Source: Parcubacteria group bacterium
GTDB taxonomy: Bacteria > Patescibacteriota > Minisyncoccia > JACPHC01
DNA length: 64,000 nt
NCBI GenBank assembly: GCA_016188775.1
Contig: JACPHC010000004.1
Location: forward strand, 12,704 to 76,703
Direction of reading: 5' to 3'
The position numbers and the translations under genes were made by a program. This document shows positions 4,001-59,000 of this stretch, one piece after another. The notes under the pieces were generated by a model. That model saw only the letters and a list, made by a program, of their open reading frames with translations, searched no databases and was not told the origin of the DNA. Each line of letters starts with the position of its first letter. Position 1 is the stretch's first letter.

Positions 4001-6711
4001 TTACCAGAACCAAACGCAAGCTCCGCAACGCTCATAGGATTAGAGGCGTAAGTTAGAACGCCGCCAGAAATATTACCGGTAAATACTCCGGCGGAGCAAT
4101 CTTCGGCTGAACAATGAAAATATTTTAAAGGAAAAGGAGAAGCGTTGGCTAGACGATAAACAATTCTGGCAAAACCGTCGTCGGAACCTTTAATGCCGCG
4201 TATATTGGTTATGCTTAAAGCGCCGGTGTCGCATCCCGTTATAACGCAAGAAGGTCCATCAACCACTGTTATAGCGCCAGTCGAGCAATTTAAATCCGAA
4301 CATTTAGCGTATCTAAGATTAGAATTGGTAGAATCCAGATAGCTTATTCGGGCAAACCCATCATTGGCAATAAAAATAGAATTATATACTCCCGGGTCGC
4401 TCGTTGTACTGCAGCCGATTAAACCGCAGCCAGTCTCGCCGTCTATTTTTTGAACAAGACCGCTAGCGCAATCTAGATGAGTGCAGTTGATATATCTCAA
4501 TCCTGTTTCTCCTCCTCCCGTTGTAAAAATAATTTTTCCAAAATCATTTGAAGCAAGAGCAAATGACGGATTTCCCGCGCCATTCCCGGTGGAAACACTG
4601 CAGTCAGTTAACACGCACCCCGACCCCGCGACACTTGTTATAACGCCTGAAGAGCAACCAATATCAAAACAACGACTAAAATTAATGCTGCTAGAGCCAG
4701 TCCTTCTATTATGAACAATTCTGGCAAAACCGTCGGAACCTTTAATTATAGAGGTGAAACTTGTGCCATTTGCGCCATTTGTTGCGCAATTGGTTAAGAC
4801 GCAACCCGTAACGCCATCAAGAATGGCAACTGTGCCGGTTGAGCAATCTAAATCAGCGCAATGAGCATATTTTAAAATTCCAGATGTATAGGATGTATAA
4901 CTAATCATTGCAAATCCATTATTATCAAGAGTTATGGAATTGTAATGGCCTGTATTTTCAGCGGTATTGCAGCCGGTTAAAACGCAACCCGTTCCGCCAT
5001 CTAAAAGAGCGGCGGTATAGTCAGTGCAGTCTATATTTTTACATCTGACATATTTAAGATCGCCATTGGTGTCATCTCTATAACTTATTCGGGCAAATCC
5101 ATCAGTGGCAAATATTGTAAGCGATGGCGTCGCTAATATTTTACCGCTACCACTATTTTCACAGTCAGTTAATAAACAGCCGGTATTTCCATCTAAAAGA
5201 TTAACCGTACCTTCGGCGATCGTCTTCCTCAACTCCATCTTGGGCTTATTATTAACCATATCATCCGTGTCAATTCCGGCGCCGTTAAAAGTAATAGATT
5301 TGGCCGTTTCATTGTTAATTCCAAAAGTCGGAGCCACGCTGGTGACAGTTGGAGCGAAAATGGTAAAAGAACGGGTATTGGAAGTACCAGTGATTGGAGT
5401 GGAACGGGAAACAGAAATGGTTCCGGTGATGTTGGTTGATCCTTCCTGTCCCGGCACTCGGACGGCGATACAAGTATTAGTGTAAGCCGAGCCAGCGCAT
5501 TTGGTTGAGCCGGTAATTTGGGTGGCGGCTGAAGCGTTAATGGTAATAGCCCCAGCGGTTCCAAAATGATCTCCATTTAAAGCAATGACTTTGCCGATTT
5601 GATCATCCGGAGTCGTGTCTATTTGACCCGGACCTTCGATTGTTCCGGCATCATCAGCAATAGAGCAAAGACGGGGCAGAATCGTGAAAGCGAAATTAGA
5701 TGATTGGCCGGAAACAGTGACTGTGATGTTTCCGGAAATTCCGGCGTCAGAGGGAATCGCGGTGGTTATAGCCGCGTCAGTCCAATTAGTGGTTGGAGAA
5801 ACAACGATATTAGCGGAGCCATTGATGGTTAAAGTTGAAGCGTCTTGAGTGGCGCCGAAACCAGCGCCGTTGATTGAGATAGTGTCTGATTGTCTGGCTG
5901 AAGCAATACCGCTAGCAATGGATGAACCAGTCGGACAAGTAGTTTCGGCTCCAGCCTCGGTCAAGTCAACTGTTGTAATAGCCGGTCCGACGGAAAAATC
6001 CGGCGTTGTCATTTTCGTCCGGTCAGCGTCAGCCAGTTCCGAGCCTTCAACAATAAAATTGAGAGTTCGGCCGGAACTTACAACAGTGTTATGATCCCAA
6101 ACTTCAAGATAAAGATATTCGTTGGCTAAAGTAAAAGGGCCGACGGAAGAAGAGGCGGTGTTGATGGTGGAGGCGCCTCCGGTCCACCAATCAACGGCGG
6201 TCGGATCATGAGAGAAAAGAAGAACCGCTCCGGTTAAAGAAGTGTCCTGGGGAACTCGAAAAACCTGGAAGGCCGGATGAGAGGTGACGTTGGCTCTGTT
6301 GTCGGTTTTTCTGACATTGAAAGTCCAGGTTCCGGCGGCGAAAGTGCCGGACATTTGGGCGTTGGAAAACCAGCCGTAGGGTTGAGGCGTGGCTCCCGGA
6401 GTGCCGGTGGTAGTGCTTGTAACTCCCGGCCTGATAACGGTTTGGACAGCGGAAGCCGGAGAAGTAATAGCTGATGTGGTGTTTGAAGCTTGATCCGGAA
6501 CAGTTCCGTCTCTCATTATCCAAGTTCCGGCCATTCCGGAAACTTCCTGATGAAGATAAAAAGTTTTGACAGCGGCGTTAGCTGAATTTTTCTCAACGCT
6601 CACCTGCGGCGGGTTTTTGGATAAATCCAAAAAGACATCATAGGGAACCGCTGTCCCTAAAATGGATAAAGATAAAATTACGACCAGAGATAGTTTTTTA
6701 AAATAGTTCAT
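1021..6711 (-). CDS. giant secreted surface protein (1896 aa) with about 14 Cys-rich ~60-aa repeats, FN3-like and IPT/TIG-like domains
   Basis: N-terminal signal-like peptide MNYFKKLSLVVILSLSILGTA. Repeats of pattern LDGxTGCVLTxC...DGFARIxY...LKYxxCxDxDCSxG. FN3-like stretches (TSYHWQARVRS, TQYFFRVSAKDS). IPT/TIG-like (PVVTSVSPSSGFDNGTISSVSITGANF). Confidence 0.8.
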   Translation of the reverse strand: MNYFKKLSLVVILSLSILGTAVPYDVFLDLSKNPPQVSVEKNSANAAVKTFYLHQEVSGMAGTWIMRDGTVPDQASNTTSAITSPASAVQTVIRPGVTSTTTGTPGATPQPYGWFSNAQMSGTFAAGTWTFNVRKTDNRANVTSHPAFQVFRVPQDTSLTGAVLLFSHDPTAVDWWTGGASTINTASSSVGPFTLANEYLYLEVWDHNTVVSSGRTLNFIVEGSELADADRTKMTTPDFSVGPAITTVDLTEAGAETTCPTGSSIASGIASARQSDTISINGAGFGATQDASTLTINGSANIVVSPTTNWTDAAITTAIPSDAGISGNITVTVSGQSSNFAFTILPRLCSIADDAGTIEGPGQIDTTPDDQIGKVIALNGDHFGTAGAITINASAATQITGSTKCAGSAYTNTCIAVRVPGQEGSTNITGTISVSRSTPITGTSNTRSFTIFAPTVTSVAPTFGINNETAKSITFNGAGIDTDDMVNNKPKMELRKTIAEGTVNLLDGNTGCLLTDCENSGSGKILATPSLTIFATDGFARISYRDDTNGDLKYVRCKNIDCTDYTAALLDGGTGCVLTGCNTAENTGHYNSITLDNNGFAMISYTSYTSGILKYAHCADLDCSTGTVAILDGVTGCVLTNCATNGANGTSFTSIIKGSDGFARIVHNRRTGSSSINFSRCFDIGCSSGVITSVAGSGCVLTDCSVSTGNGAGNPSFALASNDFGKIIFTTGGGETGLRYINCTHLDCASGLVQKIDGETGCGLIGCSTTSDPGVYNSIFIANDGFARISYLDSTNSNLRYAKCSDLNCSTGAITVVDGPSCVITGCDTGALSITNIRGIKGSDDGFARIVYRLANASPFPLKYFHCSAEDCSAGVFTGNISGGVLTYASNPMSVAELAFGSGNFLRVVFVVNPIGSSPHLNYIRCVDIDCVSVVRNAVEIFTANNQGSYIKNILGQDGFSRIVYQNDSPASGAGFLKYIRCANSNCSAGIIRTLDGGSNCKITGCSTLTAAGSYPSIAIGSADGFARIAYQDSNLDLKFIRCADLDCSTGVMNLLDGNTGCVLTNCATGDSGRFTSIAVGSDGFPRIVYGDPATSQVKYAKCADINCASGIITPISGTGCALTGCGAGYNANSISLALNPADDFGRVVFDNRFISCSDANCAVGVSTDISSSNNSSMALGSDNLARIVSINPLRYIRCPNTACTGATVVNLDGIAGCVLSGCTTSTAILSPNDTPSLILDSNQYPAIAYYKYSTESSLRFARCNDANCSAGVVKTLDGDTGCTLSGCDTDAFTGSFASLVLDSTDGLAKIAYKETNNGVLATNDLKYVKCLTDNCSGVLAIPGASVTINTAYTSITGTFNLNAASLGFYKARVTNQDTQIGEFGDGSTTGFEVRATAPVVTSVSPSSGFDNGTISSVSITGANFTADTLVKLATTSQTDILSSPACAFASSTSMTGCGFDLTDKLLGNWTVVASNSVGSGSYSPFTVLDAKPIDPTALNQYRTDGSTAITTAGSTNESSVIFKMSMAGGKTNQTYYPQVEVKPIAQAFDGTGIVEGTGVLWTTGTATGQVTVSGLVSGTSYHWQARVRSDTVGGTNNTLSNWVSFGGNPETSADFMVDTTPPVVNLNGGSCGTAYSGVTASTANISFNASDLANSYPISAQIEYDTDSSLTTPNALSSMLSIPENEAGLTKTINLLNLTASTQYFFRVSAKDSANNGPALNPSATPFCSLTTGTTSPSKTVEFFIFQEKNPTSPIATPIATPAITKKFRIRIPENNIQIKSAAIEINGTTQGGTNQTMDLKLKRGNLGATGYGAYPGAQFTFSSPASALPFKLLYDATSVFTASPQACNACETVTDLNGVSNTTKEYTLHVSPTATGSTVYLLNAKIILTYSYTP

Positions 6712-26483: not shown

Positions 26484-28316
26484 TTAAGATTGGCGATTTA
26501 TGATTTCGTTTATTTCATCTTTTTCTAAAGTTTCTTTCTCAATCAGTTTTTCGGCCAGACTCGCCAAAATTATCGATTTTCTTTTTAAAATTTCTTTCGC
26601 GTTTTTATAGCAAGCGTCAATCAGAATTTTCACTTCTTGATCGATCATTCTCGCGGTTTCTTCGGAATAATCTTTCGTTTGAGCGATGTCTCTCCCCAAA
26701 AAAACTTCGCTTTTGCCCTGTTCATAAAAAATCGTCCCTAAATTTTCGCTCATTCCCCATTCCGCTATCATTTTTCTCGCCAGTTCGAAGGCTTTTTTAA
26801 AATCGTCTCTCGCGCCATTGGTAATTCCAAGCCCCAGCATCTTTTCGGCGATTCGGCCGCCGAGAAAAATAGAAATCTCCGCTTTAAGATAATCTTCAAA
26901 ATAAAGATGCCTGTCGTCTTCCGGCAAAGAATGAGTGGCGCCAAGCGAGTACCCGCGAGGAATAATGGTAACTTTATTTATTTCATCGGCGTTGGGCAAA
27001 GATTTCGCGACTAAAGTATGCCCGGCTTCGTGCCAAGCGACCACTTTCTTTTCCTTTTCATTCATAATAATGTTTTGGCTGATACCCATTAAAAGGCGAT
27101 CGATGGCGGCTTCAAAATCCGACTCTTCAACTTTTAATTTATTCATTCTCGCGGCAATTAAAACCGCTTCGTTAGCCAGATTGGCAAGATCGGCGCCAAC
27201 TAAGCCTGGAGTCATTTTAGCTATTTTAGCAAGATTGACATTAGCCGATAAAATAATTGATTTTGTGTGAATTTTTAAAATTTCTTCCCGTTCTTTTATA
27301 TTCGGCCTCGGGATAACAATATGTCTGTCAAAACGGCCGGGCCTTGTCAGGGCCGAGTCTAAAATATCCGGCCTGTTTGTCGCCGCGAAAACTATTATTG
27401 TCTCATGGGAGTCAAATCCGTCCATTTCAATAAGAATCTGATTCAGCGCTTGTTCCCTTTCATCATGCCCGCCTCCAATACCGGCGCCCCGATGCCGGCC
27501 AATCGCGTCAAGCTCGTCTATAAAAACAACGCAGGGGGTTTTTTTCTTCGCCTTTTCGAATAAATCCCGAACTCGCGCCGCTCCAACGCCCACATACATT
27601 TCCACGAACGCGGAACCCGATTCGGAAAAAAACGGAACACCCGCTTCTCCGGCAACGGCTTTGGCAAGAAGAGTTTTTCCCGTTCCCGGAGGCCCGATAA
27701 AAAGAAGCCCTCGGGGAATTTTCGCGCCAAGTTTTCTGAATTTTTCCGGCTCTTTTAAAAATTCAATAACTTCTTTTACTTCTTCTTTGGCTTTTTCACA
27801 GCCGGCAACATCTTCAAAAGTTATTTTATTTTTTTCAACGGCGGAAATTTCTTTCGCCCTCGCTTTTGTAAAACCGATTTGATTATTTAATCCGCTTTTG
27901 GTTTGTCTTATGAAAAAAATCACGTAAATAGCCGTAACGCCCAAAAGAAAAAGAACAAGCAGGTTTAAAAAAGAAAAAGAGGACGGGGGTATAATTTTCA
28001 ATCCAACCCCGTGATCTTTTAATTTATTCAGAAAATCCATATCGCCGGCCAAAGAAGAAAAAACATCAATCGCGTATAATCTTTGATCTTTCGACATCCA
28101 TTTTAATCTGCCGTCACTTAGCCGCAATTCCGCGTAAGAAACTTGATTCGATTCCACCAATTTAAGAAATGAGGTTATTGTTTGATAAGATGTTTTGTCT
28201 AAATATCCGTTTGTCGCGCCGTTTTCTTTAATTGAAACCGTGTTATTGATAAAAAACACGGCCAAAGAAGCGATAAGAACGCCTATTATTATAAACATTA
28301 TGTTTCGCGGAAACAT
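26484..28316 (-). CDS. ftsH: ATP-dependent zinc metalloprotease FtsH
   Basis: AAA Walker [24 protein letters not shown], zinc motif HEAGHTLV, N-terminal TM. Confidence 0.93.
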
Positions 28317-31251: not shown

Positions 31252-31270
31252 TCCCAGTTCGAATCTCACC
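31252..31270 (+). other. tRNA 3-prime-end-like fragment (AGTTCGAATCTCACC identical to the T-arm/acceptor of the tRNA-Ser at 35526-35615, opposite orientation)
   Basis: 15-nt exact match read directly. The surrounding sequence does not fold as a full tRNA. Confidence 0.4.
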
Positions 31271-31323
31271 ACTAATCAATAATCCAAATAAATATACTTT
31301 TACAAAGTATATTTATTTGGATT

Positions 31324-31617
31324 GGCGGTGAAATTATATCCTTTGCGCGAACCTTTTTCGAGGGACGATGACCCGACCAGCCGCCCGCCTCCGCTAACGC
31401 TCCGGCGGCAACCTCGCAGAAAAATATCCTCCGCCTTCTTGATTTTGCGCGCGCCCGATTTTTTCTTCTAAAAAGGAAGAGGATATTTTTCTGCTCGGTT
31501 CCGCCCTCCAAGTATTCGGGCGGAGCGGCGGGGCTTCTGCGCTCGGGCGCGGCAGAATTCCCCCCACCCCCCTTCCGCCGCGCCCGAGCTTCCACGGCGA
31601 AAATTTTTTGCGGCTAA
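31324..31617. repeat. GC-rich inverted repeat, left copy (IR-L, ~290 bp with an ~85-bp insertion relative to IR-R)
   Basis: The reverse complement of 31341-31617 aligns near-identically with 33797-34021 (e.g. GGCGCGCGCAAAATCAA..GCGGAGGATATTTTTCTGCGAGGTTGCCGCCGGAGCGTTAGCGGAGGCGGGCGG). Confidence 0.85.
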
Positions 31618-32231
31618 TTGATTTTTACAAAATAACAAAGCCAGTTTGTTTTTCGTTCGTCATCCTCGACATGCGTACTCATTTTTAGCACAGAAAACCC
31701 ATTTTGCTCAAGTAGATTTTTGAACTCATCTTGAGTGTAGAACGAAAAATACCGACTGATTCCGCCATATTTATTTTCGTTTATCATTCCTTCGTCCATT
31801 CCGTTTTTCTCTTTGACCGAGATAAAACCGACGCCGCCGTTTTTGATAATTCGTTTTGTTTCCTGCAAAACTCCAACAACATCTTTTTTGGGTATGTGTA
31901 AAAAACTAGCGGCTGCCCAAAATCCGTCAAATTCTCCGTCTTGGAAAGTGGTTTTGCTAAAATCCATTTTTTGAAATTTTCCTTTTGGCACTCTCTCGCT
32001 TGCCACCCTTAACATTCCTTCGGAAGCGTCTATACCCGTATAATCAAAACCATTTTCCACAAAAACGGCAGCGTCTCGTCCGGCTCCGCAACCGAGGTCA
32101 ATAACTTTTTTTCCGTTAATAATACTTTTGTAAAAATCAAATTCTTCAACCCGAAAATGAGCGAAATGACCTGCGCTATAGTCGGGAGCGATTTTGTCAT
32201 ATGTTTCTGCTGTTTTCTGTTTGATGTCCAT
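31614..32231 (-). CDS. class I SAM-dependent methyltransferase
   Basis: Motif I VIDLGCGAGRDAAVF. 205 aa. Confidence 0.8.
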   Translation of the reverse strand: MDIKQKTAETYDKIAPDYSAGHFAHFRVEEFDFYKSIINGKKVIDLGCGAGRDAAVFVENGFDYTGIDASEGMLRVASERVPKGKFQKMDFSKTTFQDGEFDGFWAAASFLHIPKKDVVGVLQETKRIIKNGGVGFISVKEKNGMDEGMINENKYGGISRYFSFYTQDEFKNLLEQNGFSVLKMSTHVEDDERKTNWLCYFVKIN

Positions 32232-32233
32232 AA

Positions 32234-32509
32234 TTATTTTTCTTTTGTCTCAAATTGTATAATTTGGAAGCCATATTTTTCTACTGCTTCCGGCGACCAA
32301 AAAGTTTGGCCTTTGGTTTTGAGAATATAGGTGGCGATAACTTCAACTTTTCTTCCAGTATATTCTTTTTTGTCTTTGTCCCACTCCTCTAAAACCAAAG
32401 TGTCGCCTTCGTTTACTTCAAAATCTGCAAGACGCAGTTCCAGCTTTTTCTTGCCGGAAATAATTTTCTCAAAATATTCTCGCCAAACTTTTTTACGAAT
32501 TGTTGCCAT
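32234..32509 (-). CDS. DUF3850 / ASCH-like (PUA-fold) small protein
   Basis: VWREYFEKIISGKKKLELRLADFEVNEGDTLVLEEWD...YTGRKVEVIATYI matches the DUF3850 pattern. Confidence 0.5.
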   Translation of the reverse strand: MATIRKKVWREYFEKIISGKKKLELRLADFEVNEGDTLVLEEWDKDKKEYTGRKVEVIATYILKTKGQTFWSPEAVEKYGFQIIQFETKEK

Positions 32510-32511
32510 AG

Positions 32512-33057
32512 TTATTTTACTTCATAATCCCATCCCGGTCTCCATGCCTTAGTTTTTCGCCAATCTTCCGCAAACGCATCTTCCCATGTTTTACCCTTGA
32601 GCAAAACATCAAGCGCGAGTTGCGGGGCTTTATGGGCAACTATGGCAACGCTTTTGCCGTCGTAATTCTGTTTTAGAAAATCGAGAAAGTCAGCAATTCG
32701 TGTTTTTACATCCTCATAACTTTCGCCATCAGGAAATTTTTCGATTATCGCTTTTTCTTGCATTGGTTCAACAATACTCGACGGCTTAGCATTGTATTTG
32801 CCATAGTTGCATTCCCGTAATCTCGCGTCAGGAATAATCGGCACAATTCCCTCAAATGTCAGTTTTGCGGAATCAATGGCTCGCTTCAAATCAGAGCAAA
32901 ATACAATATCAAATTTTTTGTCTTTGATTTTATCTCTCAAATCAATGGATTGTTTTACTCCCAATTCTGAAAGCCCAACATCAAACCAACCGGAGGAAAT
33001 TTCTTTCTCATTATCCGTTGTCGTGCCGTGGACAAAATAAGTAATCTTGATTGCCAT
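32512..33057 (-). CDS. histidine phosphatase superfamily (phosphoglycerate-mutase-like) protein, RHG motif variant VHG
   Basis: YFVHGTTTDNE...GLSELGVKQ...SDLKRAIDSA...IVAHKAP parallels branch-1 histidine phosphatases. Confidence 0.55.
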   Translation of the reverse strand: MAIKITYFVHGTTTDNEKEISSGWFDVGLSELGVKQSIDLRDKIKDKKFDIVFCSDLKRAIDSAKLTFEGIVPIIPDARLRECNYGKYNAKPSSIVEPMQEKAIIEKFPDGESYEDVKTRIADFLDFLKQNYDGKSVAIVAHKAPQLALDVLLKGKTWEDAFAEDWRKTKAWRPGWDYEVK

Positions 33058-33061
33058 AAAT

Positions 33062-33523
33062 TTATTTAATCATCCCGCCGTGTACCAAACAGCGATAAAC
33101 AACTTTTCCACCAAAAGAAATTTCCTCTTTACCGGAAAAATTTGCAAGGTTGCCATCAGCAACAAAACGATACTCTTTGTCGTCGGCGAAAAAGTTGCTT
33201 GGTCCTCGCACTGGAATTACATCATTGTATTCTTGCATGAGTGCTTTTCGGAGGAAATCATATACATCTTTCTCGCTCACTTTTTCATCTAGGACAAAGC
33301 CGAAATAATTTGCACCCCAAATTGGTTTCTCATTTTCGTATACGATTTCCTCGCCGATAAAGTCGCGCCCGCCAAAATAAGTGTCGTGGTAAATTAGCCT
33401 GTCTTTTTCAAAATGATAATCCTCCGATTTTAGACGGGATGGCGCGACTTTTGGAGCGTCTTTATTAGCGTAAGTTGTCTTGTTCATCTCATTAAGAAAC
33501 TTTGTTAGTGTTTGAAGATTCAT
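33062..33523 (-). CDS. conserved hypothetical protein (153 aa)
   Basis: ORF tightly packed in the operon (5-bp gap to the HTH gene). No motif recognised with confidence. Confidence 0.5.
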   Translation of the reverse strand: MNLQTLTKFLNEMNKTTYANKDAPKVAPSRLKSEDYHFEKDRLIYHDTYFGGRDFIGEEIVYENEKPIWGANYFGFVLDEKVSEKDVYDFLRKALMQEYNDVIPVRGPSNFFADDKEYRFVADGNLANFSGKEEISFGGKVVYRCLVHGGMIK

Positions 33524-33528
33524 AAAAT

Positions 33529-33732
33529 TTATTTAATTAAATCCTCAATCGCGACATCAAGGGCTTTCGCAATTTTGCTCACTACAAAGACAGATGGCTT
33601 CTTGATAACACCTGTTTCAATTTTGGTTAGGGTCGTATAAGGTACATCAGCCTTACGAGCAAAATCATCTTGCGAAAGCTCTAATTTCTGTCGCAATTTC
33701 CTTATTTTCTGTCCCAGTTGATTACTTTCCAT
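33529..33732 (-). CDS. XRE-family helix-turn-helix transcriptional regulator
   Basis: LGQKIRKLRQKLELSQDDFARKADVPYTTLTKIETG is a classic Cro/C1 HTH. Confidence 0.85.
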   Translation of the reverse strand: MESNQLGQKIRKLRQKLELSQDDFARKADVPYTTLTKIETGVIKKPSVFVVSKIAKALDVAIEDLIK

Positions 33733-33796
33733 ATATTGATAACATATAACTGTTGCTATATTTCGGAGACAATATTATACTAACAGATATGAGGAC

Positions 33797-34037
33797 TTTC
33801 TTCAATGTAGCCGCAAAAAATTTTCGCCGTGGGAGCGAGGGCGCGGCGGAAGGGGGGTGTGGGGGGAAAAGTTTTCTTTTCCTTTTAGAAGAAAAAATTC
33901 GGCGCGCGCAAAATCAAAAAAGCGGAGGATATTTTTCTGCGAGGTTGCCGCCGGAGCGTTAGCGGAGGCGGGCGGCGGGGCGATTCAGTCCGTTCTTCGT
34001 TCGAAAAAGGTTCGCGCAAAGGTTAATACATCACCGC
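33797..34037. repeat. GC-rich inverted repeat, right copy (IR-R)
   Basis: See IR-L. The outer ends share CCTTTGCGCGAACC / GGTTCGCGCAAAGG. Confidence 0.85.
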
Positions 34038-34069
34038 CTTCGCCTCGCAGTAGCTCGGCTTCGGCGTGA

Positions 34070-35525
34070 CGCAGTCCGCAGAAGACGAGCGAAGGCGGGG
34101 GAATAAAATCAACGGAAGATGACGACCGACAAGTAATGTCTATTGAAGCGCAACTTTTTGAACTGCGAGAATACGCGCGTAAAGAAAATCTTGAAATTCT
34201 GGAGGAATTTCAAGAGTCGAAAAGCGCAAAGACACCCGGACGAGAAATCTTCGGCGAGATGATGGCGAAAATAGAAAGTGATGGAGATTTTGGCATACTC
34301 GCGTGGCACCCCGATCGCCTTGCGCGTAATAGTATTGACGGAGGACGCATTATCTACACCGTAGATCAGAAGAAAATAGTGTCTTTGCGTTTTCCGACAT
34401 TTTGGTTTGAACCAACCCCGCAGGGGCTCTTTATGTTGCAAGTGGCGTTCGGATGCGTCGTAAAGAATGGCTGGGACTTGCGCCTTTCGGATACCAAAAC
34501 AATCCACTTATTCGTAATATTGAACCGCACCCGACCGAAGCGCGTATTGTTAAATTAGCGTTTGAGGAATATGCGAAAGGCGTACACTCTTTTGTTTCTC
34601 TCGCGCAATTTTTGGCGGACCTCGGCGTTGTCTCAAAAAATAGAATGCCACTTGCCAAAGCTTCCATCAAACGACTTTTAACGAACAGAGCATATCTCGG
34701 CTTTTTGAAACACAAAGGAGAATGGTTTGATGGAAACTTTGAACCAATTCTTTCTCCCGCATTGTTTGAAGCCGTGCAGAAAATTTTGAAAACGAAAGAG
34801 CGGCCGCGCCACCGCCGCGCTCGGCACGATTTCCCATTTACCGGATTATTCCGGTGTGCCGAGTGCGGCTCAATGATTAGCGCGCAATGGGCGGTCAATC
34901 GCTGGGGTACAAAATATCGCTACTATCGCTGTTCAAAAAAGCGCGGCCGCTGTCCGCAACCATATATTCAAGAGGCGGAGTTGGCGCGGCAAATCAAGGC
35001 ACGGCTTCAAACAATCTCGCTTTGCGACAATCTCACCGATTGGATGTTGGAAAAAGTAAAAAGTTGGGAGCACGAGGAAATCGGAGCGTCGCAAAGCGAG
35101 GTTCAAAATCTTTCCGAAAATATTAAAACGGCAGAAGCGAGGATGGAAAAGCTGGTTTCCACTTATCTTGATGGCGACATTCCCAAACAAACTTATCTCA
35201 AAAAGAAAGATGAAATTTTACTCGCTTCTGCCGTTTTGGAGCAAAGGAAAAAAGATTTTGAAAACGGGAGAAAAAATTGGGTCGAACCCCTGCGGGAATG
35301 GATTTTAGATACGAAACAGGCCGATTTTTTGAGCACATCGAATGATTTTCACCAAATCAAAACATTTGTTCAAAAAATCGGAACGAACCCTCGGGTTCGT
35401 AACAAATCCGCCGTCTTTGATTTTTGCCCAGCCAGCCAGTTCGCCGCGAAGCGGCGAGGGATTTTGCGGAGCGCGGCCGCCTCGCGGCCGCGCGGAGCAA
35501 CCCTTTCAAATCGTGAAGTTTCTAT
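34070..35525 (+). pseudogene. large serine recombinase: frameshifted, without an in-frame start codon, and with a degenerate catalytic motif
   Basis: Resolvase-domain remnant (IKSTEDDDRQVMSIEAQ...DRLARN) with no start codon upstream. Frame shift near 34440-34460. Recombinase plus zinc-ribbon domain (FRCAECGSMIS...YYRCSKKRGRCPQP) in the second frame. The track ORF runs on through the tRNA only because no stop codon intervenes. Confidence 0.7.
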
Positions 35526-35615
35526 TGGCGGAGGCGGTGAGATTCGAACTCACGATGCCCTTTCGGACATACTTGCTTTCCAAGCAAGCGCACTAGGCCG
35601 CTATGCGACGCCTCC
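35526..35615 (-). tRNA. tRNA-Ser (anticodon GGA), class II with long variable arm, CCA encoded
   Basis: rc sequence GGAGGCG-TC-GCATAGCGGCCTAGTGCG-CTTGC-TTGGAAA-GCAAG-TATGTCCGAAAGGGCATC-GTGAG-TTCGAAT-CTCAC-CGCCTCC-G-CCA folds as a cloverleaf. Confidence 0.85.
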
Positions 35616-35715
35616 AATAGATTGGATTATATAGTTTAAAATCGGGAAAATCAAACGATATCAGTATTACATATTGATATTTTTTTTGTTATAATAAATA
35701 TAATCAATAAAAAAC

Positions 35716-52460: not shown

Positions 52461-55400
52461 CTACTTTTTAAATCCCGTGCCGACCGGAATCAGCCGGCCA
52501 ATAATGACATTTTCTTTCAATCCTTTTAATTTATCAATAGCGCCTTTGGTTGAAGCGGAAATCAAGATTCGAGAAGTTTCCTGAAAAGAAGCGGCCGAAA
52601 GAAAACTGTCAGTCGTCAAAGCGGTCTTCGTGATTCCTAAAAGAAGCTGAGCGCCTTTAGCCGGTTCTTTGCCTTCCTCTTTCAAACGATGATTTTCTTC
52701 AAGTAAAATCGCTTTCGGTATAATTTCGCCAACGGTGAAAATCGAATCCCCTTCTTCTTTAACTTTCACTCGCGAAAACATTTGACGAATTATTATCTCG
52801 ACATGTTTATCGGAAATCGGAGCGCCTTGCGAGACGTAAATTTTTTGAACTTCATTTAAAATATAGCGCTGAGTTTTTTCCGAGCCGGCCAATTTAAAAA
52901 GCTCTGAGGGATCAACCGAACCTTCGGAAAGTGAATCGCCTTTTTGAACTTTAGTTCCTTTTTCAACAATAATCGCCGTTCCTCCCGGAATGGCATATTC
53001 AACGACTTCCGGTTTCTTCTTGTTTTTTTCTTCATCTATCTCTTGAATTTTGATAATTTTTTGCGGCCTTTTATCAATAATATCCAAAACAATGCCGCTA
53101 ATTTCGCTGATAATCGCCTGACCTTTTGGCGGACGCGCTTCAAAAAGCTCTTCCACCCTGGGAAGACCTTGAGTAATGTCGCTTCCGGAAGCCACTCCGC
53201 CCGTGTGAAAAGTTCTCATTGTCAATTGAGTGCCGGGTTCGCCAATGGCTTGCGCGGCAATAACGCCCACGGCGGTGCCTAAAGGCACGATTTTATTGCT
53301 TCCGAGATCATAGCCGTAACATTTGGAACAAACTCCGGCTAAAGATTTGCAAGTTATCGGCGATCTTAAGATGACTTCATTTGCTCCGGACTGATCAATC
53401 TCCTCGGCTAATTCTTTAACGACCAAATCTCCTTCTTTACCAATGATTTTTCCTTTTTTGCCCATTACCGTCTCGGCCAAAATCCGGCCAGCCAAGCGAG
53501 CGGCGAAATTCCGGCCCAAAACCTCCCCGTCTTCGCGATAAACTTTCCAGCCGCCGGTCGTGCCGCAATCCTCTTGAGTCACTATCAAATCTTGAGCCAC
53601 GTCAACCAGCCGACGGGTTAAATAACCGGCATGAGCCGTTTTCAGGGCCGTATCCGTCGTGCCTTTTCTGGCTCCATGAGTGGCGATAAAATATTCAAGC
53701 GCGTTAAAACCTTCTTTGTAGCTTCGTTTAATCGGAAGTTCAATAATCTGCCCGGCCGGATTAACCACCAAACCCTTCATTCCCGACATCTGAATCGGCT
53801 GGGTCCAAGAACCTCTGGCCCCGGATGAAATTATGGAAAACACGGACCCGTTGGGATCAAGAGATTTTTTCACTTCATCGCCGACTTTTTCCTTAACTTT
53901 ACTCCAAATTTCAATAACCCTGGAATAACGCTCTTCATCGGTCAAAAGGCCGCGCTGATATTGATTGAATATCTTTTCAACTTCGGTTTCGGCCTCGGCC
54001 AGCAAAATTTTCTTCGCCGACGGAACAATCAGATCATTCATTCCCCAGGTAATTCCGGATTTAGTCGCGTATTCAAAACCTATTTTTTTAATTTTATCCA
54101 GAATTGACGGCGCTTCCGAATAACGAATAATTATCTGGCCGACTAGAGCTTCTAATCCTTTGGAATTCAATTCTTTATTGGCAAATTCAAAATCAGGCGG
54201 CAAGGCTTGATTAAAAATTATCCGACCGACTGATGTCTCGATTAATTTGCCTTTTTTCCTCACTTTAATTTTCGCTTTCAAATCAACCCCGCCGTGCTGA
54301 TAAACTAAAATTGCTTCATCTTCCGATCCGAAAATTTTGCCTTCGCCTTTAACGCCCTGACTTATTTTAGTCAAATAATAACAGCCTAAAACGATATCTT
54401 GAGTCGGAACCGTGATCGGATCACCGGTGGCCGGCTTTAAAAGATTCTTGGAGGAAAGCATTATTTCTCGAGCTTCCGCTTGAGCTTCTTCGGACAAGGG
54501 AAGATGAACGGCCATCTGATCGCCGTCAAAATCGGCGTTAAAAGCGCGGCAAACCATCGGATGGACCCGAATCGCTTCTCCTTCTATTAAAATCGGCTGA
54601 AACGCCTGAATGCCCAAGCGGTGCAAAGTCGGCGCGCGATTAAGAAGCACGAGTTTACCCTGAATAATTTCCTCAAGAATCGCCCAGACTTCATCCGGCC
54701 CTTCTTCAATCAAACGAAGAGCGCCTCTGATATTGTGAGCTGATTCCTTTTTTATCAATTCACGGATAACAAAAGGTTTAAAAAGTTCCAGGGCCATCTT
54801 TTTTGGAAGTCCGCACTGATGAAGATCAAGCTCCGGACCGACCACGATGACCGAGCGGCCGGAATAATCAACCCTTTTGCCTAAAAGATTTTGGCGAAAT
54901 CGGCCTTGTTTGCCTTTCAGTATGTCAGCCAAAGATTTCAAAGGCCGTTTTTGGCCGGTTGAAGCGACTGTCACAACGCCCTCGCCTCTTCTTTGAGAAT
55001 TGTCTATCAGGGCGTCAACGGCTTCCTGAAGCATTCTTTTCTCGTTTCTGACGATTACTTCCGGAGCGTTAAGCTCAATAAGTTTTTTCAGACGGCTATT
55101 GCGGTTTAAAACTCGCCGATAAAGATCGTTTAAATCAGAGGTGGCGTAGCGGCCGCCATCCAAAGGCACCATGGGCCGAAGATCCGGAGGAATAATCGGA
55201 AGATAAACTAAAAACATCCATTCCGGACGAATTCCGGCCTTAATTAAAGATCTTGTCAGAAATAAACGTTTTAAAATTTTTCGACGAGCTTCGGCTGACG
55301 CGGTCCTAGATTCGGTTTCCAGTTCAATTTTTAAATTTTCCAAATTTATTTTTGAGACAATATCTCTTAAAGTTTCAGAGCCGGTGCCGGCTTCAAAGAC

Positions 55401-56027
55401 CGGGCCGTATTTGAGCGAAAGATTTCGATATTCCACTTCCGACAAAACAAGGCCGACTTTAAGAGCTTTTAATTCTTTTTCCGTTTTTTCTTTGGCGCTT
55501 TTCAGAGATGCCAGCAATCCACCCTGTTTTTTGATTTGTTTAGCCTTAGTTTTATATTCCGCTTCCAAATCTTCCAAAATTCTGTTTTTGGCTTCTTCGT
55601 GAATTTTAGTGACAATATAGCCGGTAAAATAAATAATTTTTTCCAAATCAATAACCGAAAGACCGGTAATCGCGCCGATTTTGGAAGGAACGCCTCTTAA
55701 AAACCAGATATGCGAAACCGGAACGGCCAGTTCAATGTGGCCAAAACGTTCTCGGCGGACAATAGATCGCGTCACTTCGACGCCGCAACGGTCGCAAACA
55801 ACGCCTTTATAGCGAACCCGTCTATATTTTCCACAATAACATTCCCAATCCTTGGTCGGGCCAAAAATCCGCTCATCAAAAAGACCGTCTTTTTCCGGTT
55901 TCTGGGTCCGATAATTGATAGTTTCGGGTTTAGTCACTTCCCCGCGCGACCAATTTAAAATATCGTCGGGAGAAGCGACTTTTAATCTGATTGCTTCAAG
56001 ATCAATTGCTATTTTTTGATCAGCCAT
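52461..56027 (-). CDS. rpoC: DNA-directed RNA polymerase subunit beta-prime
   Basis: [12 protein letters not shown] catalytic motif. Zinc-finger [20 protein letters not shown]. Confidence 0.97.
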
Positions 56028-56043
56028 AAAATTAAACCGTAAA

Positions 56044-59000
56044 TTAAGATAAATTTTTTAACGCTTCTCTTTTTACCGCTTTCATTTCTTTTTCTTGTTC
56101 TTTCTTCTCTTCTTCCTCTTTCGGCATCTCAACTTTTTTCTCAATCAATTCGACATTCAAAGACAATCCTTTAAGTTCATTAACGAAAACGTTAAACGAG
56201 GCCGGCAAATTTTGAACTCGGATTTTTTCGCCGGAAATAATCGCGTCATAAGCGGCGGAGCGGCCATGGACATCGTCCGATTTAATTGTCAGCATCTCCT
56301 GAAGCGTATGCGAAGCGCCGTAACCTTCCAAAGCCCAAACCTCCATTTCTCCAAATCTTTGTCCGCCAAATTGAGCTTTACCGCCGAGCGGCTGCTGGGT
56401 AATCAGAGAATAAGGACCAATGGAGCGCATATGAATTTTATCTTCCACTAAATGATGCAGCTTCATAATGTAAATATGGCCGACTGTCACTTTATTATCA
56501 AAAAGTTCGCCGGTTCGGCCGTCGTAAAGAGAGACTTTCCCATCCTCTGGCATTCCGGCTTTCTTAAGCTCGGCCCGAATTTCTTCTTCGCTGACACCCG
56601 AAAGGGCCGGGGTAATAGCCTGATAATTCATCTTTTTGGCAATCCAGCCCAGATGAGTCTCGAGAATCTGGCCGAGATTCATTCGGGAAGCGACCGATAA
56701 CGGATTTAAAATAATGTCAATCGGCCGGCCAGTTTCCAAATACGGCATATCTTCCTCGGGAAGAATTTTTGAAATAACGCCTTTATTGCCGTGCCGACCG
56801 GCCATTTTGTCGCCAACGGAAAGTTTTCTTAATTGAGCCACTTCAACTTTAATCTGTTTAATAACTCCGACCTCAAGCTTATCGCCTTTTTCCCTGGAAA
56901 AAATTTTCACTGAAATCACCCGACCGTGCTTGCCAAACGGCAAAGCTAGAGACGTATCTTTGACATCGCGCGCTTTTTCGCCGAAAATAGCCCGCAAAAG
57001 CCTTTCTTCGGAAGTCAAATCCGCTTCTCCTTTGGGTGAAATTTTACCAACTAAAATATCTCCGGCCCTGACTTCCGCTCCAATCATCACGATTCCTTCT
57101 TCATCAAGATTTTTCAATCGTTCTTCGGAAACATTGGGAATGTCGCGAGTGGTAATTTCCGGACCAAGTTTCGTGTCTCTAACGTCAACGGTAAAATCTT
57201 CAATATGAATTGAAGTATAGCGATCGTTTTTCAAAATACGCTCGGAAATAACGATGGCGTCTTCAAAATTAGATCCGAAAAACGAAACAAAAGCGCAAAG
57301 AATATTTTGCCCCAAAGCCAGCTCACCTTTATCCGTGGCAATGCCATCGGCGATTACATCCCCTTTTTTAACCTCCTGCTTTTTTTTAACAATCGGCCGA
57401 TTGGTAATAGCGGTGAAAGCGTTAGATCTTAAAAAATTATTCATTTTATAAACTTTGGACTCCGGCTTTTTTCCTTTGGATTTGATGATAATCTGATTGG
57501 CGTCAACCGCCGCGACTTCGCCGTCAATATCGGAAACAATGACTCGGCCGGAATCGCGCGCGGCTTTGGCTTCCACTCCCGTAGCCACCACCGGAGCTTG
57601 AGGACGAATGCAAGGCACGGCTTGACGCTGCATATTTGAACCCATCAGAGCGCGATTGGCGTCGTCATGTTCAAGAAACGGAATTAAACTTGTGGCGATA
57701 CTGATTGACTGCTGCGGGGCGACATCCATATAATTAATCTCTTTTTTTGAAACAATCGTCGGCTTGCCTTTGACTCGCGCTTCAACAATCGGCGCCAAAA
57801 TACGCCCCTCTTGATCATAAGGAATTCCGGCGTGAGCGATATTAAATTCCGACTCTTCTAAAGCGTTAAGATAAACAATCTCTTTAGTAATCAGTCCTTT
57901 TTCAACTTTAATATACGGCGTTTCAATCAAGCCCAGCTCATTAACTCGGGCGTAAGAAGCGAAATGGCCAACCAAGCCGATATTCGGACCTTCCGGAGTC
58001 TCAATCGGGCAAATACGGCCATAGTGGGACGGATGCACGTCGCGAACTTCAAAACCAGCGCGCTCTCTAGTCAGACCGCCCGGGCCCATGGCTGAAAGCC
58101 GTCGTTCATGCTCAAGCTCCGAGAGCGGATTAACCTGATCCATAAACTGGCAAAGCTGGGAAGAAGTGAAAAATTCTTTCACCGAAGCCATAAAATGCCG
58201 AGTATTAATCAATTGAGCCGGCGTCAAAGTGTAAATATCAAAAGTGGACATGCGGTCGCGGATAATTCTGGTCAGGCGGCTAATGCCGAGCCTTAATTTC
58301 GTCTGCAAAAGCTCGCCCAAGGCCCGAACCCGACGGTTGCCCAAATGATCAATGTCATCAGGTTTAGCGTCCGGATCATTATTTAAACGAATAATTTCTT
58401 TAATAACCGCGACTATGTCTTCAAGATTCAAAACCCGCTTGTCCCGGCCAATTTCCTTGATATCTTTAACTCCCTTTTTAAATTTACTTAAGCGCTGATC
58501 TAATTTAAAACGGCCGACCGGAGAAATATCGTAACGCTCAAAACTGAACATTGATTCAATAAAACTTTTAGCCGTATCCGGCGTCACCGGCTCGCCGGGC
58601 CTTAAACGATGATAAATTTCAACAAAAGCCTCGGACTCGTCTTTCGCGCTATCGTGCGAAAGAGTGGATTTTATAAAATTAATTTCCGGATTTACGTCCA
58701 CTTCTTTAAAAGCATCCAAAATTTTTTCACCGGAACCCATGCCAAACATTTTCAAGAAAATAGTCGCCGGAATTTTTCTCTTGCGATCAATCTTGACGCT
58801 AATCACTCCTTGAGAATCGGTTTCAAATTCCAGCCAGGCGCCGCGATTCGGAATCAGTTTGGCGCCAAAAAGCTTGCGGCCCCTGGAAACTTCGGCGGTA
58901 AAAAAAACGCCGACCGAACGAATAAGCTGGGACACGACCACTCGTTCCACGCCATTGACGATAAAAGTTCCCCGCGGCGTCATTACCGGAAAATCCGTCA

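Follow-up and report, generated by a model that had tools for sequence, protein, structure and literature searches.

Elements of large serine recombinases (LSRs), such as phiC31-type prophages, SCCmec with CcrAB and the XisF fdxN element, combine a recombinase of the domains Resolvase, Recombinase and Zn_ribbon_recom with site-specific insertion, attL- and attR-like junctions around a short common core, and variable cargo near the recombinase. The C-segment of phage P1 (Cin) has 0.6-kb repeats with the crossover sites at their outer ends. In the yeast 2-micron plasmid, 599-bp repeats with FRT in them separate two unique regions. Integron arrays link a recombinase and a promoter to an open-ended, shuffled pool of small, often uncharacterised genes. 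Among restriction-modification (R-M) units, those regulated by C proteins are led by a small helix-turn-helix (HTH) gene, and others have terminal inverted repeats (IRs) of 26–65 bp together with 8-bp target duplications (Furuta, Abe and Kobayashi 2010, PMC2853133).

The locus described here lies in a stretch of DNA of 64 kb, all of which was analysed (the window). Its recombinase has the three domains of the LSR elements and weakly matches CcrB and XisF (NCBIfam), and insertion, junctions and cargo are arranged as in those elements. Unlike them, the Patescibacteria family to which the locus probably belongs has the very 3' end of tRNA genes as its target, is tiny (~4–8 kb) and has no replication, transfer or virion genes. 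Moreover, long IRs bracket the recombinase gene and the cargo separately here, and a complete inverted attP-like joint lies between the two. Unique segments between long IRs, with a crossover sequence inside or at the outer ends, are shared with the P1 C-segment and the 2-micron plasmid, and an excised circle of the element would resemble the latter in holding two unique regions split by two inverted attP. In contrast to both, inversion isomers did not appear (nine of nine loci had one orientation), and the enzyme is an integrase-type LSR instead of a small invertase or Flp. The likeness to integrons is in the recombinase-linked platform, the promoter and the gene pool. However, the recombinase is a serine enzyme and not the IntI tyrosine integrase, and the recombination sites enclose the entire multi-gene cassette as one unit. 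There is no attC between the genes, as the intergenic gaps of only 2–5 nt leave no room for one. The leading HTH gene, which matches Control_protein (2e-10), recalls the C protein-regulated units, and the flanking IRs together with two R-M sister cassettes (L015 and L109) recall the IR-flanked R-M units (PMC2853133). The cassette in the window differs from R-M units in having neither a restriction enzyme nor a DNA methyltransferase, and its repeats exceed the 26 and 65 bp of the examples worked through in that study and go with LSR att cores instead of target duplications.

The element and its decayed recombinase

Region 31281–35615 is quite probably the degenerate form of a small integrative element whose large family is common in the ultra-small Patescibacteria, with the cassette as its reshuffled cargo. 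The features outside the cassette genes are as follows.

35526–35615, minus strand: tRNA-Ser(GGA) (ARAGORN; Rfam 55.6 bits)
34106–35531, plus strand: LSR pseudogene, 5'-truncated, with a frameshift near 34453
34005–34046, plus strand: remnant of the internal inverted attP-like site, with P (AAAAAGGTTCGCGCAAAGGTTAATACATCA) and the core CCGCC kept
33802–34038, unstranded: proximal arm (IR-A) of the cargo IR, without a 68-nt stretch present in the distal arm
31324–31621, unstranded: distal arm (IR-A') of the cargo IR, starting at the TAG stop of the methyltransferase gene
31281–31340, minus strand: attR-like site P-O-B', made up of the outer end of the IR arm (..AATTTCA), the core CCGCCA and a perfect 20-bp AT-rich hairpin of the chromosomal flank
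31256–31270, plus strand: 15-nt copy of the tRNA-Ser T-arm, inverted and outside the element (15/15 identity, E = 0.02 in the window)

The preliminary description placed the cassette inside GC-rich IRs, with a tRNA and a decayed recombinase as neighbours. This setting was confirmed and puts the cassette in a mobile-element context. The IR (31324–31621 and 33802–34038) is real, with arms 84–92% identical (blastn E = 1e-50) and exactly two copies within the 64-kb window. The GC content is 0.58 and 0.54 in the arms versus 0.39 in the cassette. As RNA, the distal arm had a folding z of -3.6 compared with shuffles.

Compared with the intact 564-aa LSR of L085, the window copy lacks codons 1–12, and near 34453 its frame shifts with a gap of 12 residues: tblastn placed residues 13–128 in frame 3 and residues 141–508 in frame 2. 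The three LSR domains are all present (Pfam), divided over two ORFs in different frames. The gene is thus not one intact LSR ORF; intact homologues have 564 aa (L085) and 523 aa (P0124). The tRNA-Ser gene is convergent with the LSR gene and overlaps its 3' end.

The attL-like junction is the 3' end of the tRNA-Ser gene (..CCGCCA). The core CCGCCA is found at this end and again at 31324–31335, and so the attL- and attR-like sites share it. The P-O-B' pattern was also found in L086, L169 and L170. At the internal attP-like remnant, the X' arm was deleted along with LSR codons 1–12, and intact P-O-X joints occur at the corresponding position in L003, L085, L086, L168, L169 and L170.

In an intact member, the last 5–8 nt of the tRNA gene form the crossover core O. 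The LSR gene is convergent with the tRNA gene and bracketed by IR-B (110–170 nt), with its 3' end inside IR-B. An inverted, intact attP-like joint (P-O-X) separates this module from the cargo cassette, which is bracketed by a second inverted repeat, IR-A (80–290 nt), and the element meets the chromosomal flank in an attR-like joint. The conserved part is the vehicle, with three att-like sites sharing a core of 5–8 nt. At sequence level, the layout and its B-O-X / P-O-B' logic were found in L003 (tRNA-Asn, core GAGCCAA), L086 (tRNA-Tyr, CACCA), L169 (tRNA-Ser, CCGCA) and L170 (tRNA-Glu, TCACA), and the layout was partly resolved in L085, L168, L011 and L031. Independently of cargo, three of three LSR homologues picked solely for long contigs had the tRNA, IR-B, IR-A and a divergent HTH-led cassette. 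At E ≤ 1e-20, public data contain over 1000 homologues of the LSR clade (top 120: 62–93% identical).

The mobility of the family is predicted from its architecture and distribution, as neither an excision product nor an empty site nor transfer was observed. The element in the window is probably immobile, because the X' arm and the first 12 LSR codons are deleted, a frameshift interrupts the LSR gene and the identity of the IR-A arms has fallen to 84–92%. The element model gives no role to the long IRs or to the internal inverted attP-like site, and this counts against it. The layout is apparently undescribed: full-text literature searches found no description of an IR-bracketed LSR with IR-bracketed cargo, which is not proof of novelty.

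The five-gene cassette and its cargo

ORF calling found the five cassette ORFs intact, all on the minus strand and all with an ATG start.

33777–33805, minus strand: putative cassette promoter TTGAAG-N17-TAGTAT(AAT), just inside the proximal IR arm and followed by a conserved leader of ~45 nt
33529–33732, minus strand: XRE/Cro-C1-type HTH protein, 67 aa, first cassette gene (Pfam HTH_3, 2e-15)
33062–33523, minus strand: DUF5680 protein, 153 aa (PF18931, 1.5e-30)
32512–33057, minus strand: histidine-phosphatase branch-1 protein (HisPhos) with VHG, 181 aa (PF00300, His_Phos_1, 2e-28)
32234–32509, minus strand: DUF3850/ASCH-like (PUA-like) protein, 91 aa (PF12961, 4e-17; PF04266, 4e-5)
31614–32231, minus strand: class I SAM methyltransferase, 205 aa (Methyltransf_25/11/23, 5e-19)
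31541–31589, minus strand: 17-bp GC hairpin (GCTCGGGCGCGGCGGAA..TTCTGCCGCGCCCGAGC), directly after the last gene and within the distal arm

The intergenic gaps, counted from the HTH gene, are 5, 4, 2 and 2 nt. With this spacing and the confirmed ORFs, the earlier reading of one HTH-led transcription unit holds, and the family calls made at that time (XRE-HTH, histidine phosphatase-like, DUF3850/ASCH, SAM methyltransferase) agree with the Pfam profile search, which assigned the 153-aa protein, listed there as unknown, to DUF5680. The same description had spoken of a self-regulated toxin/defence or prophage-derived cassette. The HTH-led unit stood; nothing pointed to a toxin or a prophage. The DUF5680 and LSR alignments had no match in IMG/VR viral contigs. 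The DUF3850 protein had none there either (as a single query, which reaches close relatives only), and DUF5680 had no match in GenBank phages.

The HTH gene had been counted as a member of the set. It belongs to the conserved backbone of the element and is preceded by a putative promoter and a leader that are conserved as well: the window HTH is 94% identical to that of L168 and 96% identical to that of L164, and both of these cassettes are differently loaded. The promoter hexamers and their spacing are identical in L003, L164 and L168, and the leader is nearly identical in L164 and L168. The promoter is a candidate predicted from sequence and scores under a strict consensus threshold. The HTH protein probably autoregulates the cassette. 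The GC hairpin after the methyltransferase gene has no U-tract and probably acts as a terminator or an insulator; it recurs behind the final gene of the cassettes in L017, L019, L020, L081 and L082. The cassette would be a self-contained transcription unit, running from a promoter inside IR-A through the XRE-HTH gene and the packed cargo to the GC hairpin of the distal arm.

About 160 loci were examined (among them 68 via DUF5680, 80 via the phosphatase and 3 via the LSR), with genes called by a crude longest-ORF heuristic. Cargo frequencies are biased, because most loci were fetched via DUF5680 or the phosphatase, and the unbiased contexts number only three. According to the preliminary description, a module would be refuted if its genes were never co-localised elsewhere. 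Homologues do co-localise at other loci. As a conserved unit, however, the five genes failed: the full set was found at no other locus among the ~160, and only pairs or trios recur, in varying gene order. The HisPhos-DUF3850-methyltransferase block recurs once (L083, 87% DNA identity), whereas the three pairings of DUF3850, HisPhos and DUF5680 were each met with a few times. A DUF3850-HisPhos pair is present in L081, DUF3850 adjoins DUF5680 in L023, and DUF5680 adjoins HisPhos in L042, L050, L082 and L127. DUF5680 and HisPhos co-occur in at least eight loci, and DUF3850 co-occurs with one of them in at least five. These pairs recur above the expectation for a purely random grab bag, and some functional linkage is conceivable.

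The cargo varies even on nearly identical backbones. The window order is HTH-DUF5680-HisPhos-DUF3850-methyltransferase. L168, with an LSR 91% and an HTH 94% identical to the window, has HTH-deaminase-DUF5680-112 aa-RibD_C-HisPhos, and L164 (HTH 96% identical) has HTH-MazG-DUF4406-DUF3850-131 aa-deaminase-DUF5680-GrpB. Other cassettes hold a type II R-M pair, an EVE/REase-like protein, an OLD/AriA/GajA-like ATPase, EamA, alpha/beta-hydrolases, GrpB, an HD protein, MTS, a trypsin-like protease or M78+DUF4411. The sister cassettes L015 and L109 combine the HTH with an N6/N4 methyltransferase and RE_TdeIII. Many members of the pool are nucleotide or nucleoside handlers, namely dCMP deaminase, MazG, NUDIX, DUF4406/deoxyribosyltransferase-like, HD 5'-nucleotidase-like, Ham1 and GrpB proteins. 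The four non-HTH genes are probably cargo from a shared pool, swapped gene by gene among backbones that are close relatives. The best reading is one of small enzymes acting singly or in loose cooperation, not of subunits of one machine. The five-gene set is ordinary cargo and does not merit pursuit as a new five-component system.

Alternative readings and wider meaning

The five genes could be one dedicated system (self-regulated defence, toxin or nucleic-acid modification) in which the phosphatase, the ASCH-like protein, the methyltransferase and DUF5680 act on one substrate under HTH control. The tight packing with gaps of 2–5 nt and the recurring sub-blocks, such as the L083 trio and the pairs named above, speak for this, as do the defence genes in other cassettes of the element family. 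The set is nevertheless complete at no other locus, and order and partners vary on backbones that are 91–96% identical. Each gene is also found alone, in ordinary chromosomal contexts. PADLOC-DB v2 recognised no defence system over the window, in line with the earlier statement that the set matches no described system. DUF5680 and DUF3850 had no match, HisPhos had only a chance-level Cas8b match (E = 0.008), the HTH matched generic models, capH and Control_protein (2e-10), and the methyltransferase matched mad2 across its generic methyltransferase domain only. A dedicated system is thus unlikely.

Two further readings take the IRs as their starting point. The cassette could be an invertible, phase-variable segment that is flipped between the IRs by the adjacent serine recombinase, as in Cin and the P1 C-segment. 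Flanking IRs and an adjacent recombinase gene are both present, the recombinase core lies at the outer ends of the long IRs in opposite orientation, the arms are 99–100% identical in several intact elements, and contigs end at the repeats in L004 and L109. However, the LSR 3' end is tRNA-proximal in nine of nine loci, the HTH gene is LSR-proximal wherever a contig holds both, and the second orientation was absent from the assemblies, with the caveat that short-read assemblers cannot always orient segments between perfect repeats. As the promoter is located inside the cassette, flipping would not switch expression. The LSR is moreover of the integrase type and would have to pair attL with attP, or attP with attR, combinations that such enzymes do not normally recombine. 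We regard inversion as very unlikely. A DNA transposon or mobile insertion cassette would account for the terminal IRs, the lack of a recombinase inside and the variable passenger genes, and has a precedent in the IR-flanked R-M units (PMC2853133). Against this, there is no direct target-site duplication beside the arms, the arm ends are the att core common to the tRNA and the LSR module, the cassette is always beside the LSR module where the contig reaches that far, and only two repeat copies exist in the 64-kb window. This makes a transposon highly improbable.

Beyond the integrative element with reshuffled cargo, a wider joint reading is possible but, as a whole, somewhat doubtful. Patescibacteria would harbour minimal serine-integrase elements that target tRNA genes, share a stereotyped arrangement of two modules and three sites and form a widespread class, so far undescribed. 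The recombinase gene and the HTH-led cassette would each lie within long IRs, with an intact inverted attP in between. The elements would be an integron-like platform that shuffles nucleotide-handling, R-M/defence, DUF5680 and VHG-phosphatase genes. The duplicated inverted attP would have a function of its own, and the window would hold a decayed, fixed example. If this is true, the inverted attP could serve to form an ssDNA dumbbell with a double-stranded attP after transformation, to invert a module or to autoregulate the recombinase. The LSR vehicle may be a major route of accessory-gene gain and reshuffling in the genome-reduced, uncultivated Patescibacteria. The LSR/IR architecture is rigid and unusual; it would give a simple annotation rule to delimit accessory cassettes in their genomes, and the family would be a source of natural attP/attB pairs for compact serine integrases. 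It also singles out two uncharacterised families for biochemistry, DUF5680 and the VHG histidine phosphatases.

Proteins of the cargo

The phosphatase matches PF00300 with 99.9 bits (cut-off 21.7), and its best NCBIfam match is CobC with 77 bits against a cut-off of 163. The replacement of RHG by VHG, noticed in the preliminary description, is real: in the alignment with the phosphoglycerate mutase 3d8h, V9 stands opposite the RHG Arg, and the motif reads FVHG in place of the RHG signature. VHG was kept in five of five close homologues; the more distant L064 has RHG. Like histidine phosphatase superfamily branch 1 (dPGM, CobC, PhoE, SixA), the protein matches the HMM across the fold and keeps both His (the nucleophile and the second one), the second Arg and the Glu. 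The difference is that the VHG subfamily throughout has Val for the first Arg and 'HK' for 'HG', the latter also in the aligned homologues. The core residues H10, R59, E82 and H142 are invariant in the alignment of homologues. At least 283 relatives were found in JGI metagenomes. A nucleotide-like substrate for dephosphorylation is a weak working guess.

The methyltransferase carries the GxGxG SAM-binding motif (VIDLGCGAG, read directly from the translation). Its closest PDB entries are methyltransferases that are uncharacterised or act on small molecules, and its NCBIfam matches are all under their cut-offs. By sequence, it appears to be of the small-molecule (UbiE/TehB-like) type. A DNA methyltransferase of an R-M system was rejected: the translation contains neither (D/N/S)PP(Y/F) nor the C5 PCQ motif, Pfam gave no N6_N4_Mtase or DNA_methylase match, and the cassette holds no REase.

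The DUF3850 protein matches PF12961 with 62.7 bits (cut-off 22.9) and PF04266 (ASCH) with 24.7 bits (cut-off 21.2). It has no sequence relative in the PDB and is 93% identical to the L164 copy. A modified base as the ligand or the deacylation substrate of this ASCH-like protein is, again, a weak guess to work with.

The DUF5680 match is full-length (106 bits, profile positions 1–104 of 104). There were 430 homologues; the best 120 of these are 66–90% identical, and those among them with a named source come from Patescibacteria or unclassified bacteria. The AF2 model has a pLDDT of 89, and the modelled protein resembles the UTRA/chorismate-lyase fold only weakly. Binding of a small molecule is an equally weak guess. 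The literature search on DUF5680 returned an unrelated mention only, and the family has no assigned function. A dCMP-deaminase gene adjoins or overlaps the DUF5680 gene in 7 of 68 genomes.

Gene content of the cassette and its partners

The five genes at 31614-33732, which the preliminary description had proposed as a possible new accessory operon led by an XRE-HTH, are probably the cargo of a degenerate integrative element of a large serine recombinase (LSR), and the reading as a novel five-gene system was not upheld. The interesting part is the architecture of the element family, not the five-gene set. The packed genes themselves were present as described, all on the minus strand with ATG starts and gaps of 2-5 nt (5, 4, 2 and 2 nt in order from HTH to methyltransferase).

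ORFs of the cassette (all with ATG start)
33529-33732, minus: XRE-HTH, 67 aa; Pfam HTH_3
33062-33523, minus: DUF5680, 153 aa (previously "unknown"); Pfam
32512-33057, minus: histidine phosphatase (HisPhos), 181 aa; Pfam His_Phos_1
32234-32509, minus: DUF3850/ASCH, 91 aa; Pfam
31614-32231, minus: class I SAM methyltransferase (MTase), 205 aa; Pfam domains

All five ORFs are undamaged, with 84-96% identity to homologues. The replacement of RHG by VHG in the phosphatase was borne out, as V9 aligns with the RHG arginine of a phosphoglycerate mutase of known structure. VHG was kept in five of five close homologues, along with H10, R59, E82 and H142, and is therefore a subfamily trait rather than a lesion. 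"HK" stands where "HG" is expected in this phosphatase and its close homologues. The methyltransferase is predicted from its sequence to be of the small-molecule (UbiE/TehB-like) type; direct reading of its translation gave no DNA-methyltransferase motif. Exact-protein look-ups for the methyltransferase and DUF3850 returned no identical record.

The comparison loci (L numbers) were fetched in three sets: 70 species-level genome loci via DUF5680 (68 non-redundant loci counted, partners within 5 kb), 80 metagenome loci via the VHG phosphatase (median length 3.9 kb) and 3 loci via LSR homologues, plus several by exact-protein look-up. As for a conserved system, the complete set was found in none of the other loci from any of these searches, and PADLOC recognised no system in the cassette. 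The most common DUF5680 partner was a dCMP-deaminase-like gene of ~151 aa (7 of 68 loci), always immediately upstream. The pair lies at 5549-6462 in L003 and also occurs in L011, L012, L013, L164 and L168; where genes had been called (L003, L164 and L168), it shares a 4-nt overlap. This most consistent partner is missing from the window. Other partners of DUF5680 in the 68 loci were the LSR, the phosphatase, related methyltransferases and HTH (five each) and DUF3850 (one). Partners of the phosphatase in the 80 loci were HTH (8), methyltransferase (4), DUF5680 (2), LSR (2) and DUF3850 (1).

Sub-blocks recurred, with gene order and partners varying from locus to locus. The HisPhos-DUF3850-MTase block is present in L083 with 87% DNA identity to 31610-33068, and the DUF3850-HisPhos pair recurs in L081. 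DUF5680 adjoins HisPhos in L042, L050, L082 and L127, and DUF3850 in L023.

DUF5680 domain fusions were dismissed: in six loci no additional Pfam domain was found in the longer ORFs, whose calls probably extend too far. DUF5680 homologues on Bacillus megaplasmids showed 32% identity, and their genomic surroundings were uninformative. Proteobacteria bins (Hyphomicrobiales, Reyranella, Asaia, Gammaproteobacteria) contain DUF5680 loci with 50-78% identity to the Patescibacteria proteins, and some other loci are recorded as DPANN archaea. L016, L017, L028, L029, L034, L039, L062, L066, L068 and L070 are among those filed outside Patescibacteria. Such placements could be binning contamination or real transfer.

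Repeats, att-like sites and the layout of the element family

The flanks agreed with the preliminary description: a GC-rich inverted repeat is followed by a decayed LSR and a tRNA-Ser(GGA). The cargo repeat comprises 31324-31621 and 33802-34038 (inverted, 84-92% identical), and no further copy was found in the window beyond these two arms. The GC content of the arms is 0.54-0.58 versus 0.39 inside the cassette. The same GC-rich repeat recurs as inverted pairs around other DUF5680/phosphatase cassettes, often with 99-100% identity between the proximal (IR-A) and distal (IR-A') arms.

Wherever the contig reaches far enough, the LSR gene is itself enclosed by another inverted repeat of 110-170 nt (IR-B). 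One of its arms starts in the last 5-8 nt of a tRNA gene and includes the LSR 3' coding end; the other is found upstream of where the LSR starts, directly against IR-A. Read as junctions around a crossover core O with arms P, X and B', site 1 is tRNA-O-X (attL-like) and site 3 is P-O-B' (attR-like), where B' is usually a terminator-like hairpin. Site 2, between LSR and cargo, is inverted and reads P-O-X, the attP joint expected from excision. P is the outer ~30 nt of the cargo arms (e.g. AAAAAGGTTCGCGCAAAGG...), a loose mimic of a tRNA T-arm.

IR-A length and core O
L003: 211 nt; GAGCCAA (tRNA-Asn)
L013: 244 nt
L017: 167 nt
L019: 80 nt
L085: 284 nt
L086: 158 nt; CACCA (tRNA-Tyr)
L161: 151 nt
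L169: 164 nt; CCGCA (tRNA-Ser)
L170: 244 nt; TCACA (tRNA-Glu)
Window: CCGCCA (tRNA-Ser)

The full layout was found in three of three LSR contexts, which were picked only for long contigs and thus carry no cargo bias. No description of this architecture was found in the full-text literature searched. The LSR clade is large (>1000 homologues at E <= 1e-20; the best 120 are 62-93% identical). Many homologues lie on contigs of only 1.5-5 kb, a length range in keeping with assembly breaks at the repeats, and the contigs of L004 and L109 start and finish in an inverted repeat. These elements break up short-read assemblies systematically, and binned genomes probably contain too few of them.

Other explanations of the repeats were weighed. 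Inversion of the segment between them, like the P1 C-segment, is disfavoured: the putative promoter is internal to the cassette, and, although short-read assemblies poorly orient segments lying between perfect repeats, LSR orientation relative to the tRNA was identical in nine of nine loci and cassette orientation relative to the LSR was constant wherever a contig holds both. Alternatively, the repeats might mark a transposon or mobile insertion cassette, for which the reported restriction-modification units with long inverted repeats (PMC2853133) are a precedent; this reading lacks target duplications, none of which flank the repeat arms. An assembly artefact was rejected because the two arms are no longer identical in several loci (73-99% identity). 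Moreover, the repeats were seen in contigs named by at least two assembler styles (megahit-style k141, SPAdes-style NODE) and in records from JGI, ENA, NCBI and Logan.

A known RNA family was also discarded, as Rfam gave tRNA only (relaxed search of 29-38 kb; gathering threshold for the whole window). ORFs of 127-156 aa inside the repeats or upstream of the LSR are Arg/Ala-rich products of GC-rich sequence, unrelated between distant elements and similar only where the DNA is similar; they were therefore treated as spurious. A prophage origin was rejected, with DUF5680 and LSR alignments finding no relatives in IMG/VR. Single DUF3850 and LSR proteins had no close relatives in IMG/VR either, and DUF5680 gave nothing against GenBank phages.

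For the integrative element, the excised circle would have two unique regions parted by two inverted attP copies, formally like 2-micron. A single-stranded form of such a circle would pair into a dumbbell whose stem is double-stranded attP; we speculate that this could matter, for instance once the DNA has been taken up by transformation.

Decay of the element in the window

With the tRNA forward, the element in the window reads tRNA-Ser-CCGCCA-X-[LSR pseudogene]-[X' arm and LSR codons 1-12 deleted]-CCGCC(inverted)-IR-A-[HTH, DUF5680, HisPhos, DUF3850, MTase]-IR-A'-CCGCCA-AT hairpin. The LSR is without codons 1-12 and frameshifted, and the IR-A arms have drifted apart, with a 68-nt indel between them. 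A still more eroded element lies at the same tRNA-Ser(GGA) in L047.

The LSR reading frame continues through the tRNA antisense strand (35526-35634; alignment A3), and the conserved LSR C-terminal tail '..GGIRT' is the antisense of the T-arm. An exact 15-nt copy of the tRNA-Ser T-arm (AGTTCGAATCTCACC; 31256-31270, plus strand) lies just outside the element, inverted with respect to the tRNA at 35526-35615, and may have been left behind by an earlier event; L017 has a comparable T-arm-like remnant against its cassette repeat. Directly outside the distal arm, at 31281-31323, is a perfect 20-bp AT-rich palindrome (AATCCAAATAAATATACTTT..AAAGTATATTTATTTGGATT), which probably served originally as the tRNA's downstream terminator (B' flank). 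Comparable hairpins come after site 3 in L003 and L170.

The remaining window resembles ordinary chromosome; the translation of 26484-28316, for example, looks like an FtsH-like AAA protease. Large ORFs include one of 1896 aa (1021-6711, minus strand) and others of 1092-1188 aa (52461-59322).

Cargo exchange within a shared backbone

Three near-identical backbones (window, L168 and L164) bear different cargo.

Cargo by locus
Window: DUF5680-HisPhos-DUF3850-MTase
L168 (LSR 91% identical): deaminase-DUF5680-112 aa-RibD_C-HisPhos
L164: MazG-DUF4406-DUF3850-131 aa-deaminase-DUF5680-GrpB
L015, L109: C-protein-type type II restriction-modification unit
L017: EVE/REase-like protein
L003: OLD/AriA/GajA-like ATPase
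Elsewhere: EamA, alpha/beta-hydrolases, GrpB, NUDIX, HD 5'-deoxynucleotidase-like protein, MTS methyltransferase, trypsin-like protease, M78+DUF4411

The cargo pool is mixed: a nucleotide-handling theme is visible, alongside some defence genes. Between the window and L164/L168, the HTH is 94-96% identical. The sequence TTGAAG-N17-TAGTAT(AAT) sits immediately inside IR-A, followed by a leader nearly identical in L164 and L168; a strict sigma-70 scan missed it, with 8 of 12 positions matched against a threshold of 9. At the other end, IR-A' directly adjoins the MTase stop codon and opens with a 17-bp GC hairpin. This hairpin recurs 3' of the last gene in L017, L019, L020, L081 and L082. In the cassette, a putative transcription unit, HTH, promoter and hairpins would belong to the backbone, as putative repressor, promoter, and terminator or insulator.

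Single genes would be exchanged with gaps held at 2-5 nt. The restriction-modification cassette of HTH, N6/N4 DNA methyltransferase and RE_TdeIII is shared by L015 (60-2760) and L109 (243-3022); one copy closes with DUF5680, the other with the VHG phosphatase. Either gene can apparently take the "last gene" place beside the repeat hairpin. L015 (2792-6242) and L082 (2561-4652) contain consecutive HTH-led cassettes split by repeat arms, and as many as three HTH genes fall within 7 kb. It may therefore be that cargo modules form arrays. In L164 (1-8798), several inverted-repeat pairs and an HTH-led cassette are interspersed with three tRNA-Thr genes; the arrangement may reflect elements inserted in tandem, or one within another, at duplicated tRNA targets.
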